A stretch of DNA of 64,000 bases from NCBI RefSeq assembly GCF_002854065.1, contig NZ_CP024147.1. One strand, written 5' to 3'. The notes under the pieces are model-generated. The model saw nothing but the letters and a program-made list of their open reading frames with translations. It searched no databases and was not told the origin of the DNA. The position numbers and the translations under genes were made by a program. This document shows positions 53,211 to 60,541 of the stretch, piece after piece; the stretch's first letter is position 1, and every line of letters starts with the position of its first letter. Source of the DNA: Escherichia coli (GTDB lineage: Bacteria; Pseudomonadota; Gammaproteobacteria; Enterobacterales; Enterobacteriaceae).

Positions 53211-54134
53211 TCAGGCATGCTCCAGTGAAAAATTCGGGTAGTGCTCGGCAAAATACTGGCGTAAAAATTCTACCGTTATCCGCACTTTCGCTGACGTCGC
53301 CAGCCTTGAAACATAAACGGCCCAGACGTTCGCTGGCTGGTAATATTCCGGTAGCACTTGCACTAAATGACCACTGGCAATGTTTTCGCTAACATCCCAC
53401 CAGGAACGCAGAGCAATCCCCTGCCCATCGAGACACCACTGATGGACAATTTCTCCATGATTAGACGACAGTGGGCCGGTGACTTTAATCGCATGGTGGC
53501 CTTCTTTATTGCGTAATTGCCAGACACCAAAAGGATGATCGCGCTCTTTAATGACCAGGCACGGCAATGCAGAAAGATCGGTTAAATGTTTCGGCGCGCC
53601 ATGTTGCGCAATAAATTCCGGCGACGCGCAGAGAATGCGGTAATTGGTCGCCAGTTTGCGGGCGATTAAATTAGGGGAGATGTCATCGCCAATGCGAATA
53701 TCGAGATCGACACCTTCATTGACCAAATCGACCAGCCGGTCTTCCACATCAAAACGTAATTCCAGTTGCGGATACGCCTTCGCCAGCGCTGATAACGCCG
53801 GAGCCACCACCTGTCGTCCAAAACCAAAGCTGCTGATAATACGCAGCATCCCCTGTGGCACCTGACGCACGTCAGAAAGTTCGTCCATCATCTGACCGAC
53901 ATCCTGCAAAATCCGCTGCGCCCATTCATAAATCCGCTCTCCTTCTTCGGTAATGGTGACGCGGCGTGTGGTGCGGTGTAACAACACCACGTTTAGCGTT
54001 TGCTCCAGCAAGGCGATGCGCTTGCTGACGAACGCCGGTGAAACGCCCAGTTCTTCCGCCACGGCGGCAAAACCAGCCCGACGAGCCACCAGCATAAAGA
54101 CGCGCAAATCATTCAGCAGCGGTAAATTATTCAT
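53211..54134 (-). CDS. dmlR: LysR-family transcriptional regulator (307 aa)
   Basis: ORF 53211..54155; start at MNNLPLLNDLRVFMLVARR; divergent from dmlA. Confidence 0.85.
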   Translation of the reverse strand: MNNLPLLNDLRVFMLVARRAGFAAVAEELGVSPAFVSKRIALLEQTLNVVLLHRTTRRVTITEEGERIYEWAQRILQDVGQMMDELSDVRQVPQGMLRIISSFGFGRQVVAPALSALAKAYPQLELRFDVEDRLVDLVNEGVDLDIRIGDDISPNLIARKLATNYRILCASPEFIAQHGAPKHLTDLSALPCLVIKERDHPFGVWQLRNKEGHHAIKVTGPLSSNHGEIVHQWCLDGQGIALRSWWDVSENIASGHLVQVLPEYYQPANVWAVYVSRLATSAKVRITVEFLRQYFAEHYPNFSLEHA

Positions 54135-54239
54135 GATTCGTGTTTTATGTTTCACCAGTTATGGGGATTAATTCCTTTTCAGTCAATTATAGGATAGTGA
54201 TGTTGTCAATTTTGATGGTCAGGAAGTGAGAACCCAATA

Positions 54240-55322
54240 ATGAAAACGATGCGTATTGCTGCGATCCCGGGAGACGGGATTGGCAAAGAAGTCCTTCCTG
54301 AAGGGATTCGCGTGTTACAGGCTGCCGCTGAGCGCTGGGGCTTCGCCTTGAGTTTTGAGCAAATGGAGTGGGCGAGCTGCGAGTATTACAGCCATCACGG
54401 TAAAATGATGCCGGACGACTGGCATGAGCAACTTAGCCGTTTCGACGCCATCTATTTTGGTGCCGTCGGCTGGCCGGACACCGTTCCGGACCATATTTCG
54501 TTGTGGGGTTCGCTGCTGAAATTTCGTCGTGAATTCGACCAGTACGTCAACCTGCGCCCGGTTCGTCTCTTTCCTGGCGTTCCCTGCCCGCTGGCGGGAA
54601 AACAGCCTGGCGACATCGATTTTTACGTGGTCAGGGAAAACACCGAAGGCGAATATTCCTCGCTCGGCGGTAGAGTGAATGAAGGTACAGAGCATGAAGT
54701 CGTCATTCAGGAATCGGTATTTACGCGTCGTGGTGTCGATCGCATTTTGCGTTATGCCTTCGAACTTGCGCAAAGCCGCCCACGTAAGACGCTAACTTCT
54801 GCCACTAAATCAAACGGTTTAGCCATCAGCATGCCGTACTGGGATGAGCGAGTGGAAGCAATGGCCGAGAATTACCCGGAGATCCGCTGGGACAAGCAGC
54901 ATATTGATATTCTCTGCGCGCGTTTTGTGATGCAGCCGGAACGCTTCGATGTGGTGGTGGCGTCCAATTTGTTTGGCGATATCCTTTCCGATCTTGGCCC
55001 GGCCTGCACCGGCACCATTGGCATTGCCCCATCCGCCAACCTGAATCCGGAACGCACTTTCCCGTCGCTCTTCGAGCCTGTCCACGGTTCCGCGCCGGAT
55101 ATCTACGGGAAAAATATTGCTAACCCTATCGCCACAATTTGGGCCGGGGCAATGATGCTCGATTTTCTCGGCAATGGCGATGAGCGTTTCCAGCAAGCGC
55201 ATAACGGTATTCTGGCAGCGATTGAAGAAGTGATTGCTCACGGGCCGAAAACACCGGATATGAAAGGCAGTGCCACCACGCCACAGGTTGCCGACGCGAT
55301 TTGCAAAATTATTTTGCGTTAA
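54240..55322 (+). CDS. dmlA: D-malate / tartrate dehydrogenase, decarboxylating (360 aa)
   Basis: Isocitrate/isopropylmalate dehydrogenase family pattern (MKTMRIAAIPGDGIGKEV...). Confidence 0.9.
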   Translation: MKTMRIAAIPGDGIGKEVLPEGIRVLQAAAERWGFALSFEQMEWASCEYYSHHGKMMPDDWHEQLSRFDAIYFGAVGWPDTVPDHISLWGSLLKFRREFDQYVNLRPVRLFPGVPCPLAGKQPGDIDFYVVRENTEGEYSSLGGRVNEGTEHEVVIQESVFTRRGVDRILRYAFELAQSRPRKTLTSATKSNGLAISMPYWDERVEAMAENYPEIRWDKQHIDILCARFVMQPERFDVVVASNLFGDILSDLGPACTGTIGIAPSANLNPERTFPSLFEPVHGSAPDIYGKNIANPIATIWAGAMMLDFLGNGDERFQQAHNGILAAIEEVIAHGPKTPDMKGSATTPQVADAICKIILR

Positions 55323-55342
55323 GGTCAAACCAGTTTATTTGA

Positions 55343-55368
55343 ACCGCGTCACTGACGCGGTTTTTTTA
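55343..55368 (+). terminator. intrinsic terminator of dmlA
   Basis: AACCGCGTCACTGACGCGGTTTTTTT. Confidence 0.6.
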
Positions 55369-55572
55369 TTCGTTCTTTGCAGTTAATAACCTGCGTCATT
55401 TCACCTTTTATTGTTTCCGTTTCGTGTTTTATGGCTTTCCGTATTCTTAATTGTTTAATTTATGTAACATGCAAATAATCAATTTGTTAAACACAACATA
55501 CAACTCATTACCCTGCAAATAATTACAACTGGCAAAAGCCAGAGACGGGCTTTTATGCCCAGGAGATGACTC

Positions 55573-57183
55573 ATGATGAGCAATGTTAAGAAAAAAGATG
55601 TGCCGCTGATAAGCATCAGCCTGGTGGCCATTCTTTTCATCGCAGCTGCATTAAGCCTTTTCCCACAACAATCGGCCGACGCGGCCAACGCAATATACAC
55701 TTTTGTTACGCGTACGTTAGGTTCCGCCGTACAGGTATTGGTTTTGCTGGCAATGGGACTGGTGATTTATTTAGCCACTAGTAAATACGGCAATATTCGT
55801 CTTGGCGAAGGAAAACCGGAATACAGCACGCTCTCCTGGCTGTTTATGTTTATTTGTGCCGGTTTAGGTTCTTCTACGCTTTATTGGGGGGTTGCTGAAT
55901 GGGCCTATTATTATCAAACGCCTGGATTAAATATCGCACCGCGTTCACAACAGGCACTCGAATTTAGCGTCCCTTACTCCTTCTTCCACTGGGGCATCAG
56001 CGCCTGGGCAACTTATACGCTGGCCTCATTAATCATGGCTTATCACTTTCATGTGCGGAAAAACAAAGGTCTGAGTCTTTCCGGCATTATTGCCGCGATT
56101 ACCGGCGTTCGCCCGCAAGGCCCATGGGGAAAACTGGTTGATTTGATGTTCCTGATCGCCACTGTCGGTGCACTGACTATTTCCCTTGTTGTCACCGCAG
56201 CAACCTTTACTCGTGGACTTTCCGCACTGACCGGTTTACCCGATAACTTCACCGTGCAGGCATTTGTGATCCTGCTTTCCGGCGGCATTTTTTGCCTAAG
56301 CTCATGGATTGGTATCAACAACGGTTTGCAACGTCTGAGCAAAATGGTTGGCTGGGGCGCGTTCCTGCTGCCATTACTGGTGCTGATTGTCGGTCCAACC
56401 GAATTTATTACCAACAGCATCATCAATGCCATCGGCCTGACCACGCAAAACTTCCTGCAAATGAGCTTATTCACCGATCCGCTTGGCGATGGTTCATTTA
56501 CCCGCAACTGGACCGTATTCTACTGGCTGTGGTGGATCTCATACACCCCTGGCGTAGCAATGTTTGTCACCCGCGTTTCCCGCGGTCGTAAGATTAAAGA
56601 AGTTATCTGGGGACTGATCCTCGGCAGCACCGTCGGTTGCTGGTTCTTCTTCGGCGTAATGGAAAGCTATGCCATTCATCAGTTTATCAATGGCGTAATC
56701 AACGTCCCACAGGTGCTGGAAACACTGGGCGGCGAAACAGCTGTACAGCAAGTTCTGATGTCGTTGCCAGCCGGTAAATTGTTCCTCGCCGCATACTTGG
56801 GCGTGATGATTATTTTCCTTGCCTCGCATATGGATGCAGTGGCCTACACCATGGCGGCGACCAGTACGCGTAATCTCCAGGAAGGTGACGATCCTGACCG
56901 TGGGCTGCGTCTTTTCTGGTGCGTGGTGATCACTCTGATCCCGCTTTCCATCTTGTTTACCGGTGCTTCGCTGGAAACGATGAAAACCACCGTCGTGCTC
57001 ACAGCCCTTCCCTTCCTCGTCATTTTACTGGTGAAAGTCGGCGGATTTATTCGCTGGCTGAAACAGGATTACGCCGACATTCCGGCTCATCAAGTTGAAC
57101 ATTATCTCCCGCAGACACCGGTTGAAGCCCTGGAAAAAACACCAGTGCTCCCTGCGGGAACCGTATTCAAAGGCGACAACTGA
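55573..57183 (+). CDS. yeaV: BCCT-family transporter (536 aa from ATG; a shorter internal TTG start is possible)
   Basis: ORF track 55573..57183 with AGGAG RBS before ATGATG; N-terminal 55 residues form a hydrophobic helix. Confidence 0.8.
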
Positions 57184-57214
57184 GCGCCATCATCCTAACG
57201 ATAAAGGTATCCCT

Positions 57215-58339
57215 ATGAGCAATCTGAGCCCTGACTTTGTACTACCCGAAAATTTTTGCGCTAACCCGCAAGAGGCGTGGACCATTCCTGCCCGTTTTTA
57301 TACCGATCAGAACGCCTTTGAACACGAAAAAGAGAACGTCTTCGCCAAAAGCTGGATTTGCGTCGCTCACAGCAGCGAACTGGCGAATGCCAATGATTAT
57401 GTGACGCGTGAGATCATTGGCGAAAGCATCGTGCTGGTACGCGGTCGTGATAAGGTTTTGCGCGCGTTCTATAACGTGTGTCCGCACCGTGGTCATCAGT
57501 TGTTGAGCGGTGAAGGAAAAGCAAAAAATGTGATTACCTGCCCATATCACGCATGGGCATTCAAACTCGATGGCAATCTGGCCCATGCACGTAACTGCGA
57601 AAACGTCGCCAATTTCGATAGCGACAAAGCGCAACTGATTCCGGTGCGTCTGGAAGAATATGCCGGATTCGTCTTCATCAACATGGACCCCAACGCCACC
57701 AGCGTAGAAGATCAGTTACCCGGTCTGGGCGCGAAAGTGCTGGAAGCCTGCCCGGAAGTCCACGATCTGAAACTGGCGGCCCGCTTTACCACCCGCACGC
57801 CTGCCAACTGGAAGAACATTGTCGATAACTATCTCGAGTGCTATCACTGTGGTCCGGCGCATCCAGGTTTCTCCGACTCCGTACAGGTTGATCGTTACTG
57901 GCACACCATGCACGGTAACTGGACGCTGCAATACGGTTTCGCCAAACCGTCCGAACAGTCGTTTAAATTTGAAGAGGGTACGGATGCGGCATTCCACGGT
58001 TTCTGGCTGTGGCCGTGCACGATGCTGAACGTCACCCCGATCAAAGGGATGATGACGGTCATTTATGAATTCCCGGTGGATTCTGAAACTACCCTGCAAA
58101 ACTACGATATTTACTTCACCAATGAAGAGTTAACCGACGAGCAAAAATCGCTGATTGAGTGGTATCGCGATGTGTTCCGTCCGGAAGATTTACGTCTGGT
58201 TGAAAGCGTACAGAAAGGGCTGAAATCGCGTGGCTATCGTGGTCAGGGGCGCATCATGGCCGACAGTAGCGGTAGCGGCATTTCCGAACATGGTATCGCC
58301 CATTTCCATAATCTGCTGGCGCAGGTATTTAAGGACTAA
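57215..58339 (+). CDS. yeaW: Rieske-type oxygenase subunit, carnitine monooxygenase-like (374 aa)
   Basis: ORF 57095..58339; start at MSNLSPDFVLPENF; Rieske motif CPHRGH...CPYHAW. Confidence 0.85.
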   Translation: MSNLSPDFVLPENFCANPQEAWTIPARFYTDQNAFEHEKENVFAKSWICVAHSSELANANDYVTREIIGESIVLVRGRDKVLRAFYNVCPHRGHQLLSGEGKAKNVITCPYHAWAFKLDGNLAHARNCENVANFDSDKAQLIPVRLEEYAGFVFINMDPNATSVEDQLPGLGAKVLEACPEVHDLKLAARFTTRTPANWKNIVDNYLECYHCGPAHPGFSDSVQVDRYWHTMHGNWTLQYGFAKPSEQSFKFEEGTDAAFHGFWLWPCTMLNVTPIKGMMTVIYEFPVDSETTLQNYDIYFTNEELTDEQKSLIEWYRDVFRPEDLRLVESVQKGLKSRGYRGQGRIMADSSGSGISEHGIAHFHNLLAQVFKD

Positions 58340-58394
58340 TGACATCGGCGGCGGTATTTTCCGCCGCCGGGCTGATTTTTGATGGAGTACAGCA

Positions 58395-59360
58395 ATGTCA
58401 GACTATCAAATGTTTGAAGTACAGGTGAGTCAGGTGGAACCGCTTACCGAACAGGTGAAACGCTTCACGCTGGTGGCAACCGATGGCAAACCATTACCTG
58501 CGTTTACTGGAGGAAGTCACGTCATTGTGCAGATGAGCGATGGTGATAACCAGTATAGCAATGCGTATTCACTGCTGAGTTCGCCTCTCGATACAACTCA
58601 TTATCAGATTGCCGTTCGACTGGAAGAAAACTCGCGCGGCGGTTCCCGCTTTTTGCATCAGCAGGTAAAAGTGGGCGATCGGTTAACGATCTCATCGCCT
58701 AATAACCTGTTTGCGCTAATTCCCTCAGCCAGAAAGCATCTGTTTATCGCGGGCGGTATTGGTATCACCCCTTTCCTGTCGCACATGGCAGAGTTGCAAC
58801 ACAGCGACGTCGACTGGCAGCTACATTACTGCTCGCGAAATCCAGAAAGTTGCGCATTTCGTGATGAGCTAGTCCAGCATCCGCAGGCTGAGAAAGTCCA
58901 TTTGCATCATTCATCAACCGGAACACGACTGGAATTAGCGCGATTATTGGCGGATATCGAACCTGGCACACACGTTTATACCTGTGGCCCCGAGGCGCTA
59001 ATTGAAGCGGTAAGAAGTGAAGCTGCGCGTCTGGACATCGCCGCCGATACGCTGCACTTTGAGCAATTTGCTATCGAAGACAAAACCGGCGATGCATTTA
59101 CCCTGGTGCTTGCCCGTTCCGGAAAAGAGTTTGTGGTGCCGGAAGAGATGACTATTTTGCAGGTTATTGAAAATAATAAAGCCGCGAAAGTGGAATGTTT
59201 ATGTCGTGAAGGGGTATGCGGAACCTGCGAAACGGCAATACTGGAAGGTGAAGCTGACCATCGGGATCAGTATTTTAGCGATGAAGAGCGTGCCAGCCAG
59301 CAAAGTATGTTGATCTGTTGTTCGCGTGCGAAGGGTAAACGCCTGGTGTTGGATTTGTAG
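58395..59360 (+). CDS. yeaX: oxidoreductase with FNR-like and 2Fe-2S ferredoxin domains (321 aa)
   Basis: C-terminal CREGVCGTCE 2Fe-2S motif. Confidence 0.85.
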   Translation: MSDYQMFEVQVSQVEPLTEQVKRFTLVATDGKPLPAFTGGSHVIVQMSDGDNQYSNAYSLLSSPLDTTHYQIAVRLEENSRGGSRFLHQQVKVGDRLTISSPNNLFALIPSARKHLFIAGGIGITPFLSHMAELQHSDVDWQLHYCSRNPESCAFRDELVQHPQAEKVHLHHSSTGTRLELARLLADIEPGTHVYTCGPEALIEAVRSEAARLDIAADTLHFEQFAIEDKTGDAFTLVLARSGKEFVVPEEMTILQVIENNKAAKVECLCREGVCGTCETAILEGEADHRDQYFSDEERASQQSMLICCSRAKGKRLVLDL

Positions 59361-59364
59361 TTTG

Positions 59365-59407
59365 CCGAAGCCGGATGTGGCGCTGAGCGCGCCCAGTCCG
59401 GCTTCGG
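59365..59407. terminator. hairpin between convergent yeaX and rnd
   Basis: CCGAAGCCGGA...TCCGGCTTCGG, 11-bp stem. Confidence 0.45.
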
Positions 59408-59413
59408 AAGATT

Positions 59414-60541
59414 TTACTGCGGATATTCCTGCAATAAATTGTGTAATGCTTCCGCCATCAGCTCACCACGCCAGCCGGAAATCAGCTCCGGCAAATTGTT
59501 CTGCGGTTTCAGTTTCCAGTGCCAGTTCAGCAGTTGGTTGATTTGCCGACGCGATGCCAGCAATTCGGCGCTGATCTTATGCGTTTCGCTCACATCAGTA
59601 ATCAGCGACTTAATCGCTTTAAACGCTTTACGATAACCCGGCATGTCCATCAGGTTAAGCATCGGCTGCGGTAAGGCATCTTCCGGCAATGTCTGCGCTT
59701 TTTCCACCAGCGCCAGCAGCGTTTTACCATGAAAGCGGATTTCGCTACCGGATAAACCCAGGCTGTCCAGTTCGCCTAAACTTCCCGGCATATAACGCGC
59801 TACCGACCACAAATGCTCTTCACGCACGACAAAGTTCACCGCCAGATCGCGCTCTCGCGCCTTGCGCAGTCGCCAGTCGGCTAACAGTTGCAGACAGGCC
59901 AGTTGGCGTGTGCGTAATTGCCAGGCATTGGTGATATCACGCCAGGCATCTTCCGGCGCAACGACTTCCTGACGACGCATTTGCATCAGGCGACATTCAT
60001 CCAGCGCCGCTGGTAGCCAGCCGGAGGCCTCCGTTTCTACCATAAGCTTGGCGGTGATCGGTAACAGATACCAGACATCCGCCGCTGCATATTCACACTG
60101 ACGTTCGGTCAGCGGTCTGGCCAGCCAGTCGGTGCGCGATTCACTCTTGTCCAGCGTAACGCCGGAATACTCTTCCACCATGGAAGCGAAACCCCATGAC
60201 ATCGGGCGTCCGCAGAAGGCAGCAAGGATTTGCGTGTCAATCAGGGGTTGTGGTAATTCGCCAAAGGCATTGAGGAACACTTCCAGATCTTCACTGCCTG
60301 CATGGAGAAATTTTGTGATGGACGGATCGCGCAGGATCGCTTTCAGCGGTGACCAGTCGGTGATCCCGAGAGGATCAATTAGCGCCAGATGCTCGCCATC
60401 GAAAAGTTGAATCAACCCCAGCTGCGGGTAATAAGTGCGCGTACGAACAAATTCAGTATCCAGGGCTATCGCCGGAAAGGCACGGACGGCTTCACACAAA
60501 GAAGCCAGCGCATCGTCCGTGGTAATCATTTGGTAATTCAA
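59414..60541 (-). CDS. rnd: ribonuclease D (375 aa), TTG start
   Basis: MNYQMITTDDALASLCEAVRAF...; codon at 60539-60541 is TTG on the coding strand. Confidence 0.9.
   Translation of the reverse strand: MNYQMITTDDALASLCEAVRAFPAIALDTEFVRTRTYYPQLGLIQLFDGEHLALIDPLGITDWSPLKAILRDPSITKFLHAGSEDLEVFLNAFGELPQPLIDTQILAAFCGRPMSWGFASMVEEYSGVTLDKSESRTDWLARPLTERQCEYAAADVWYLLPITAKLMVETEASGWLPAALDECRLMQMRRQEVVAPEDAWRDITNAWQLRTRQLACLQLLADWRLRKARERDLAVNFVVREEHLWSVARYMPGSLGELDSLGLSGSEIRFHGKTLLALVEKAQTLPEDALPQPMLNLMDMPGYRKAFKAIKSLITDVSETHKISAELLASRRQINQLLNWHWKLKPQNNLPELISGWRGELMAEALHNLLQEYPQ

Follow-up and report, generated by a model that had tools for sequence, protein, structure and literature searches.

Positions 54135–59360 of the 64,000-nucleotide stretch of Escherichia coli DNA analysed here (the window; contig NZ_CP024147.1, assembly GCF_002854065.1) hold the D-malate dehydrogenase gene dmlA, divergent from its regulator gene dmlR, and the genes yeaV, yeaW, and yeaX, which encode a BCCT-type transporter and the two subunits of carnitine monooxygenase. 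The region is very probably the E. coli version of the aerobic L-carnitine catabolic cluster in its intact allele, and the short, TTG-initiated form of yeaV very probably belongs to a deletion allele. YeaV, a protein of 536 amino acids (aa) translated from ATG 55573, would import carnitine, as its orthology to the Acinetobacter baumannii transporter Aci01347 suggests; YeaW/YeaX would then hydroxylate C4 to yield trimethylamine (TMA) together with malic semialdehyde (MSA), the reaction published for the E. coli enzyme. An unlinked aldehyde dehydrogenase would oxidise MSA to D-malate, given that no Escherichia cluster contains an MSA dehydrogenase gene (msadh), and DmlA, which converts D-malate to pyruvate and CO2, would complete the route under the control of DmlR, a regulator that responds to D-malate. 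The genes dmlA and yeaVWX would form separate transcription units; a sequence box found upstream of both, at the same distance from each putative −10 element, suggests that DmlR may govern the two together. Gene content, enzyme function, the D-malate link, and the long yeaV start are all already known or annotated, and what is added is modest: an explanation of the discrepant K-12 start, a census of three alleles, the observation that msadh is missing throughout the genus, and a candidate DmlR box common to both units.

The five genes and their counterparts in other bacteria

The 9 kb around the region are E. coli chromosome, matched in 5,425 of 5,426 complete genomes, and strain CUWW06 is 100% identical to the window over this length; gene coordinates are those of its RefSeq annotation converted to window positions. 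The range examined opens with the first base beyond the start codon of dmlR and ends at the stop of yeaX, taking in the dmlR–dmlA intergenic region and four genes, with leuE upstream and rnd and fadD downstream of the cluster. On the minus strand, dmlR (53211–54134; RefSeq) encodes a LysR-type regulator with Pfam domains HTH_1 and LysR_substrate and 45% identity to A. baumannii CarR (PMC11353897). The other four genes lie on the plus strand. The product of dmlA, which RefSeq places at 54237–55322, is a D-malate/tartrate/3-isopropylmalate dehydrogenase (decarboxylating) that matches Pfam Iso_dh and scores 563.9 bits against TIGR02089, for which the equivalog cutoff is 470.4. It is followed by yeaV (55573–57183), encoding a full-length BCCT transporter of 536 aa (RefSeq, NF007412, Pfam BCCT); yeaW (= cntA; 57215–58339), encoding the Rieske oxygenase subunit of carnitine monooxygenase (Rieske and Ring_hydroxyl_A); and yeaX (= cntB; 58395–59360), encoding the FMN/[2Fe-2S] reductase subunit, with FAD_binding_6 at residues 9–103, NAD_binding_1 at 117–207, and Fer2 at 240–313. 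Pfam and NCBIfam uphold the family assignments of all five genes. Codon 1 of dmlA at 54237 is ATA in the window, where K-12 reads ATG ATG; RefSeq keeps the ATA start (361 aa), and the real start is likely ATG 54240 (360 aa), so that the gene would occupy 54240–55322.

Residue roles in CntA have been described from its structure (PMC7948474), and the 17 residues assigned there to cofactor or substrate are conserved in YeaW without exception. The Rieske [2Fe-2S] ligands C86, H88, C106, and H109 of the A. baumannii protein correspond to YeaW C89, H91, C109, and H112; the iron triad H208, H213, and D323 and the bridging glutamate E205 correspond to H211, H216, D325, and E208; and the substrate pocket—Y203 (π-cation), Y225, F258, N270, Y295, Y315, F319, and C206/C209—is kept throughout. 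YeaW matches the solved A. baumannii CntA (PDB 6Y8J) with E = 1.2e-196 and is 72–73% identical to Acinetobacter CntA by tblastn, while YeaX is 45–63% identical to CntB homologs outside Escherichia and Citrobacter. Purified E. coli YeaW/YeaX convert carnitine to TMA and MSA and are highly active in vitro (PMC9508527), and the YeaW of the window is practically identical to that of K-12 (100% by tblastn; nonsynonymous substitution rate, Ka, 0.001). An initial annotation made from the sequence had named the genes, recognised a CntA/CntB-like architecture, and proposed a TMA-generating route: the profiles, the structure match, and the 17 residues bear out the first two claims, and the published biochemistry bears out the third. 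A 414-aa open reading frame (ORF) for yeaW from TTG 57095 was rejected, as the 374-aa form already aligns with CntA from its residue 4 and the longer frame runs back into the end of yeaV. The rate of evolution of YeaX is several times that of YeaW, with 85% versus 98% identity to the Escherichia albertii proteins and Ka of 0.084 versus 0.011.

Relatives of the cluster were collected by a scan with YeaW at one genome per species, which found at least 595; the best 80 were kept and searched by tblastn with the five E. coli proteins. Among the 74 loci with enough upstream DNA, 70 have a divergent LysR gene, 64 a dmlA homolog within 10 kb, and 55 the full set of five genes, collinear and ordered as in E. 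coli, the collinear loci being spread over Escherichia, Citrobacter, Yersinia, Xenorhabdus, Serratia, Pseudomonas, Acinetobacter, and Vitreoscilla. In A. baumannii, the route from carnitine through MSA and then D-malate to pyruvate has been demonstrated in vitro and in vivo, and the five E. coli orthologs have been listed (PMC11353897, Piskol 2024). The carnitine route yields D-malate stereospecifically (PMC11353897): the stereocentre of L-carnitine is kept through C–N cleavage and aldehyde oxidation, and a decarboxylating D-malate dehydrogenase is therefore needed. The initial annotation had placed dmlR–dmlA next to yeaVWX, and that adjacency stands; the pair is, however, not merely adjacent, for the recurrent collinearity and the published D-malate link make dmlR–dmlA a component of one conserved cluster for the carnitine pathway and no chance neighbour.

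The A. baumannii cluster reads carR, mdh, bcct (aci01347), hyd, cntA, msadh, cntB. It shares the five orthologs with E. coli in the same order and orientation, with identities of 45, 72, 56, 72, and 52% (PMC11353897), or 45–54, 70–72, 53–54, 72–73, and 50–52% by tblastn, and the two share their chemistry as far as TMA and MSA. E. coli differs from it in having neither hyd nor msadh, and in the gap between mdh/dmlA and bcct/yeaV, which holds a terminator and 250 bp in E. coli but is only some 50 bp long in Acinetobacter. In Citrobacter, the chromosomal cluster lies next to rnd, and its order dmlR–dmlA–yeaV–yeaW–(msadh)–yeaX–rnd is syntenic with Escherichia; YeaV and YeaW are 88–94% identical to those of E. 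coli, and the same upstream regulatory block is present. Seven of the 11 Citrobacter loci keep a 488-aa aldehyde dehydrogenase between yeaW and yeaX, whereas none of the Escherichia loci does. Eight Paraburkholderia/Burkholderia clusters (L044, L046, L049, L061, L064, L067, L068, and L070) have LysR, cntA, msadh, and cntB genes but no BCCT gene, presumably using another transporter, and carry their dmlA homolog 2–4 kb downstream on the opposite strand.

The yeaV start codon and the alleles of the cluster

ATG 55573 lies 165 nt (55 codons) upstream of TTG 55738 and is preceded, at a distance of 7 nt, by the Shine–Dalgarno sequence AGGAG (55561–55565, plus strand), for which an equivalent CAGGAG or CGGAGG is kept in orthologous loci. 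An in-frame TGA at 55567, two codons before the ATG, makes 55573 the first possible start of yeaV. The internal TTG (55738–55740, plus strand), which is the annotated K-12 start, is codon 56 in the window; it falls midway along the second transmembrane helix (TM2) and has no Shine–Dalgarno sequence. Pfam BCCT (PF02028, TC 2.A.15) matches YeaV residues 14–499 to profile positions 3–485 of 485 (E = 1.9e-121), the score of 548 bits with TIGR00842 lies above the cutoff of 407, and the equivalog NF007412, whose model length is 536, is matched over 1–536 at 1033.3 bits against a cutoff of 647. Alignments to solved BCCT structures (DddT, CaiT, a TMA transporter, BetT, and BetP) begin at YeaV residues 9–33, and those to solved 12-TM structures span residues 9–502. 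The 55-codon extension encodes a lysine-rich N terminus and a strongly hydrophobic first helix at about residues 12–30; a simple hydropathy scan gave a clear TM1 (~7–35) and TM2 (43–73), with some later helices merged or missed. Escherichia and Citrobacter share the conserved N-terminal sequence and the Shine–Dalgarno, N termini that can be recognised as related occur in Yersinia, Xenorhabdus, Serratia, Pseudomonas, and Acinetobacter, and RefSeq annotates 536 aa both in the window genotype and in O157:H7 Sakai. Judged from the sequence, then, ATG 55573 is the real start, on the strength of the upstream stop, the profile and structure matches, the TM1 within the extension, and the conservation across genera. 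This upholds the longer start with its AGGAG ribosome-binding site favoured by the initial annotation, which had also given a shorter start at the TTG: its position, 55738, is exact, but it is the K-12 annotation of a deletion allele and no alternative start in the window.

The TM8 signature of BCCT transporters, which we take to be PROSITE [GSDN]-W-T-[LIVM]-x-[FY]-W-x-W-W, is readable in the YeaV translation. The closest solved relatives are DddT-type transporters (E = 3e-100). CaiT, the E. coli carnitine/γ-butyrobetaine antiporter (PDB 2WSX, 3HFX) and a member of the anaerobic cai operon, belongs to the same BCCT fold family and aligns with YeaV residues 26–502 (E = 8e-70), but it is a paralog and no ortholog: the NCBIfam CaiT model gives YeaV 346 bits against a cutoff of 541. 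Orthology to Aci01347 (53–56% identity), which carries carnitine and choline (PMC6562126), suggests that YeaV is a transporter of carnitine, a quaternary amine. At an Escherichia whittamii locus (L005 8448–9966), YeaV matches in two overlapping pieces in different frames (residues 1–190 and 214–536), and yeaV is 89 bp shorter than at other Escherichia loci, which looks like another inactivation of the transporter.

Pairwise alignment of MG1655 with the window reveals a clean deletion in K-12 of the 225-bp segment at 55476–55700 (plus strand). It takes the last 97 bp upstream of yeaV and the first 128 nt of coding sequence, and with them most of the putative −10, the 5′ untranslated region (UTR), the AGGAG, the ATG, and the first 43 codons; what is left of YeaV in K-12 has neither TM1 nor the loop leading to TM2. 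Along the 481 codons that both alleles have, K-12 yeaV is ~100% identical to the window (tblastn; Ka 0.001) and occupies the same chromosomal position. The K-12 annotation uses TTG because the upstream start is physically deleted. Two forms stand in the databases, a 536-aa 'BCCT family transporter YeaV' and the 481-aa Swiss-Prot YEAV_ECOLI; the curated MG1655 record (b1801) gives an ordinary coding sequence of 1,446 nt and 481 aa, and RefSeq marks the same deletion allele in MC4100 and BL21(DE3) as a pseudogene, 'incomplete; missing N-terminus'. The outgroups E. albertii, Escherichia sp. E1V33, and Citrobacter have the long yeaV, and the deletion is therefore the derived state.

The alleles were counted in the 5,426 complete E. 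coli genomes, a set skewed to clinical and laboratory isolates in which fractions are not population frequencies. The intact 225-bp segment was matched in 2,930 genomes and the K-12 junction, queried as a 60-mer at an E-value limit of 1e-12 to keep out half-length matches, in 1,439 genomes, BL21(DE3) included. The body of yeaV just downstream was matched in 4,370 genomes; since 2,930 and 1,439 add up to 4,369, the two alleles cover essentially every yeaV-bearing genome. A further ~1,056 genomes, CFT073 among them, cover only 29% of an 8.2-kb query and have lost the cluster. In blood isolate AH19K002, dmlR is reduced to 168 bp and dmlA to an internal stretch of 173 bp plus 37 bp from its 3′ end, with these remnants joined to the final 24 bp of yeaX; CFT073 has the same annotated dmlR and dmlA fragments. 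This type of lesion is a composite loss of ~5.75 kb, one junction of which in AH19K002 coincides with an exact 11-bp direct repeat, ATTTTGCGTTA, found at 54744–54754 inside dmlA and at 55311–55321 at its 3′ end.

In a spread sample of genomes, rows with the 225-bp deletion (97% of the query, in two pieces) are 98.7–98.9% identical to the window, and rows with the large deletion 97.2–97.4%. These identity classes would fit one origin per lesion, each in a distinct clade; K-12 and B are, we assume, of phylogroup A, and CFT073 of B2. In BL21(DE3) (L086 23966–25674), an IS4-like insertion sequence, IS421, interrupts yeaR just upstream of leuE/dmlR and is unrelated to the cluster. For rnd (minus strand), RefSeq uses ATG 60529 (371 aa), whereas the curated K-12 record uses TTG 60541 upstream (375 aa), a UUG start that we take to be experimentally established.

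Regulatory sequences and the missing pathway genes

A strong intrinsic terminator at 55341–55370 (plus strand) follows dmlA; its 10-bp stem is a 100% complementary inverted repeat, followed by a T-run, and it is kept in Citrobacter. A terminator of this strength implies that yeaVWX has its own promoter. The best candidate is the promoter-like TTGTTT-17 nt-AATAAT at 55451–55479 (plus strand), read from the sequence, whose conservation across enteric genera is what points to a promoter; a σ70/terminator scanner found 5 promoter-like sites against 5.7 in shuffled sequence, and the candidate fell below its threshold. Upstream of it, at 55421–55441 (plus strand), lies a TTCGTGTTTTATG box within a block conserved in Escherichia, Citrobacter, the Enterobacteriaceae metagenome genome L022, Serratia, Yersinia, and Xenorhabdus. 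The same box, as TTCGTGTTTTATG-TTTCACC, occurs at 54137–54156 (plus strand) in the divergent dmlR–dmlA region, where it abuts the dmlR start; it is conserved from Escherichia to Serratia and is a candidate DmlR site. The exact 13-mer TTCGTGTTTTATG has two copies in the window against 0.20 expected, a number reached in 2 of 100 shuffles. Measured from the putative −10, the box centre is ~55 bp upstream of the putative transcription start in both regions, a spacing typical of LysR activators. DmlR, as the CarR ortholog, may thus control both dmlA and yeaVWX; a literature search (dmlA/dmlR/yeaT/yeaU/yeaW) found no DmlR targets besides dmlA.

Two small hairpins, CTGGCAAAAGCCAG and GGGCTTTTATGCCC, lie at 55529–55560 directly 5′ of the yeaV Shine–Dalgarno, and the pairing of GGGCTTTTATGCCC is kept with different sequences in Citrobacter. 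Folding of the putative yeaV 5′ UTR gave small hairpins with z = −2.75, which is suggestive but not distinctive. An Rfam scan of 54000–59600 at a permissive E-value returned two sub-threshold chance matches on terminator-like hairpins, and no known riboswitch or small RNA in the yeaV leader.

Between cntA and cntB, 60 of 78 loci carry an insert of ~1.5–1.8 kb. Two of these inserts were inspected, those of Citrobacter sp. R56 and A. calcoaceticus, and they encode Aldedh-family proteins of 483–488 aa, the MSA dehydrogenase. The insert is absent from all four Escherichia species, where the aligned YeaW–YeaX gap is 58 bp, and also from 4 of the 11 Citrobacter loci and from the Yersinia and Serratia loci. 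Likewise absent between bcct and cntA is hyd: the yeaV–yeaW gap in the window is 31 bp, and Acinetobacter has a 324-aa Abhydrolase_3 ORF there. As msadh is missing, E. coli would need an unlinked aldehyde dehydrogenase, and GabD (62% identity) has been pointed to as the stand-in (PMC11353897). The yeaW–yeaX gap contains a GC-rich, terminator-like 10-bp hairpin with a T-run (58345–58379, plus strand), present in all Escherichia loci, which could attenuate expression of the reductase or stabilise the mRNA. That it is a scar of msadh deletion was rejected, because the same element sits between msadh and cntB in Citrobacter.

Competing readings and implications for E. coli

Several points weigh against the carnitine cluster as set out here. 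With msadh and hyd missing, the E. coli pathway is incomplete within the cluster; the terminator after dmlA means that the enteric cluster is not a single operon, unlike that of Acinetobacter; and the shared motif is the sole basis for assigning yeaVWX to DmlR. The cluster is damaged or missing in ~46% of the complete genomes of the skewed set and is to that extent dispensable. BL21, B, and K12 fail to grow on carnitine, and no condition in GEO gave substantial cntA transcription (PMC11353897). K-12 and BL21(DE3) carry the truncated yeaV, and these negative growth tests covered only strains with the truncated transporter. Despite this truncation, K-12 and BL21 are listed as TMA formers from carnitine (PMC6200775), so that YeaV is not essential for substrate entry, or not its only route. 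Phenotypes of a K-12 yeaV knockout and of its overexpression have been reported from untargeted metabolomics (PMC10971958), and the truncated allele may retain some function.

It is possible to regard the two halves as functionally independent, dmlRA serving D-malate/tartrate use together with a moonlighting role in leucine synthesis and yeaVWX being an unrelated quaternary-amine cassette. The strong terminator and 250-bp gap between dmlA and yeaV are compatible with this, as are the description of DmlA as a generalist enzyme (PMC11353897) and the loss from Escherichia of msadh, the link between the halves. Against this, 55 of 74 loci, ranging from Escherichia to Acinetobacter and Vitreoscilla, have the five genes in this order, D-malate is the stereospecific product of the carnitine route (PMC11353897), the conserved 13-mer is common to both upstream regions, and both halves were lost together in CFT073-type genomes; independence is accordingly judged unlikely. 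Far less credible still is a physiological YeaV of 481 aa that starts at TTG 55738 even in the window, with the 55 upstream codons untranslated. This is the form given in the curated K-12 record and in Swiss-Prot YEAV_ECOLI, and transport-related phenotypes have been reported for the K-12 allele (PMC10971958), but the TTG lies in mid-TM2 without a Shine–Dalgarno, the extension fits BCCT profiles and solved structures and is conserved as protein across genera, and in K-12 the deletion of the upstream codons forces the TTG in an allele that RefSeq calls a pseudogene.

The cluster could also be a remnant in decay that serves no present function in E. coli, the copy in the window being merely not yet deleted. 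Genus-wide loss of msadh, the separate lesions (the 225-bp deletion in 1,439 genomes, the ~5.75-kb loss in ~1,056, and the disrupted E. whittamii yeaV), and the absence of cntA expression from public data (PMC11353897) all speak for decay. Against E. albertii, however, Ka/Ks (Ka relative to the synonymous rate, Ks) is 0.02–0.03 for dmlR, dmlA, and yeaV, 0.01 for yeaW, and 0.08 for yeaX at Ks of 0.7–1.0, beside 0.02 for the housekeeping neighbour rnd. Such low values mean that purifying selection continued after msadh was lost; within Escherichia, the five genes stay at 0.01–0.09 with Ks up to ~0.8–1.0, which cannot be squared with long-term neutrality. Published assays found high activity of the enzyme in vitro (PMC9508527), and the regulatory block upstream of yeaV is conserved. 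Decay thus appears rather improbable, and the carnitine cluster is best described as conditionally useful and dispensable.

A more far-reaching proposal, advanced only tentatively and at less than even odds, is that the standard laboratory strains K-12 and B are natural yeaV-null mutants, and that wild strains with the intact allele run a DmlR-coordinated route from carnitine to TMA and D-malate and on to pyruvate, with an unlinked aldehyde dehydrogenase replacing msadh. MKH13 is presumably a derivative of MC4100, one of the strains with the truncated allele. It served as the host in which Aci01347 was assayed and is described as devoid of compatible-solute transporters (PMC6562126), a background that is consistent with a null K-12 yeaV and no proof of it. 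Were the proposal true, a strain-specific lesion would lie behind the status of YeaV as an 'orphan transporter', the resources that start from the 481-aa ORF, and the reported lack of growth of E. coli on carnitine. In the library searched, no paper was found that pairs yeaV with a truncation.

For annotation, the caveat is that the curated MG1655 record and Swiss-Prot describe a 5′-truncated yeaV, an allele found in about a quarter of complete genomes, and that this form is presumably what TCDB and the K-12 collections of knockouts and ORFs also use; a further fifth or so of complete genomes, of the CFT073 type, have no cluster. Counts of cntA/yeaW in metagenomes, or tests in K-12 and BL21, can therefore misjudge the share of E. 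coli in the formation of TMA from carnitine.

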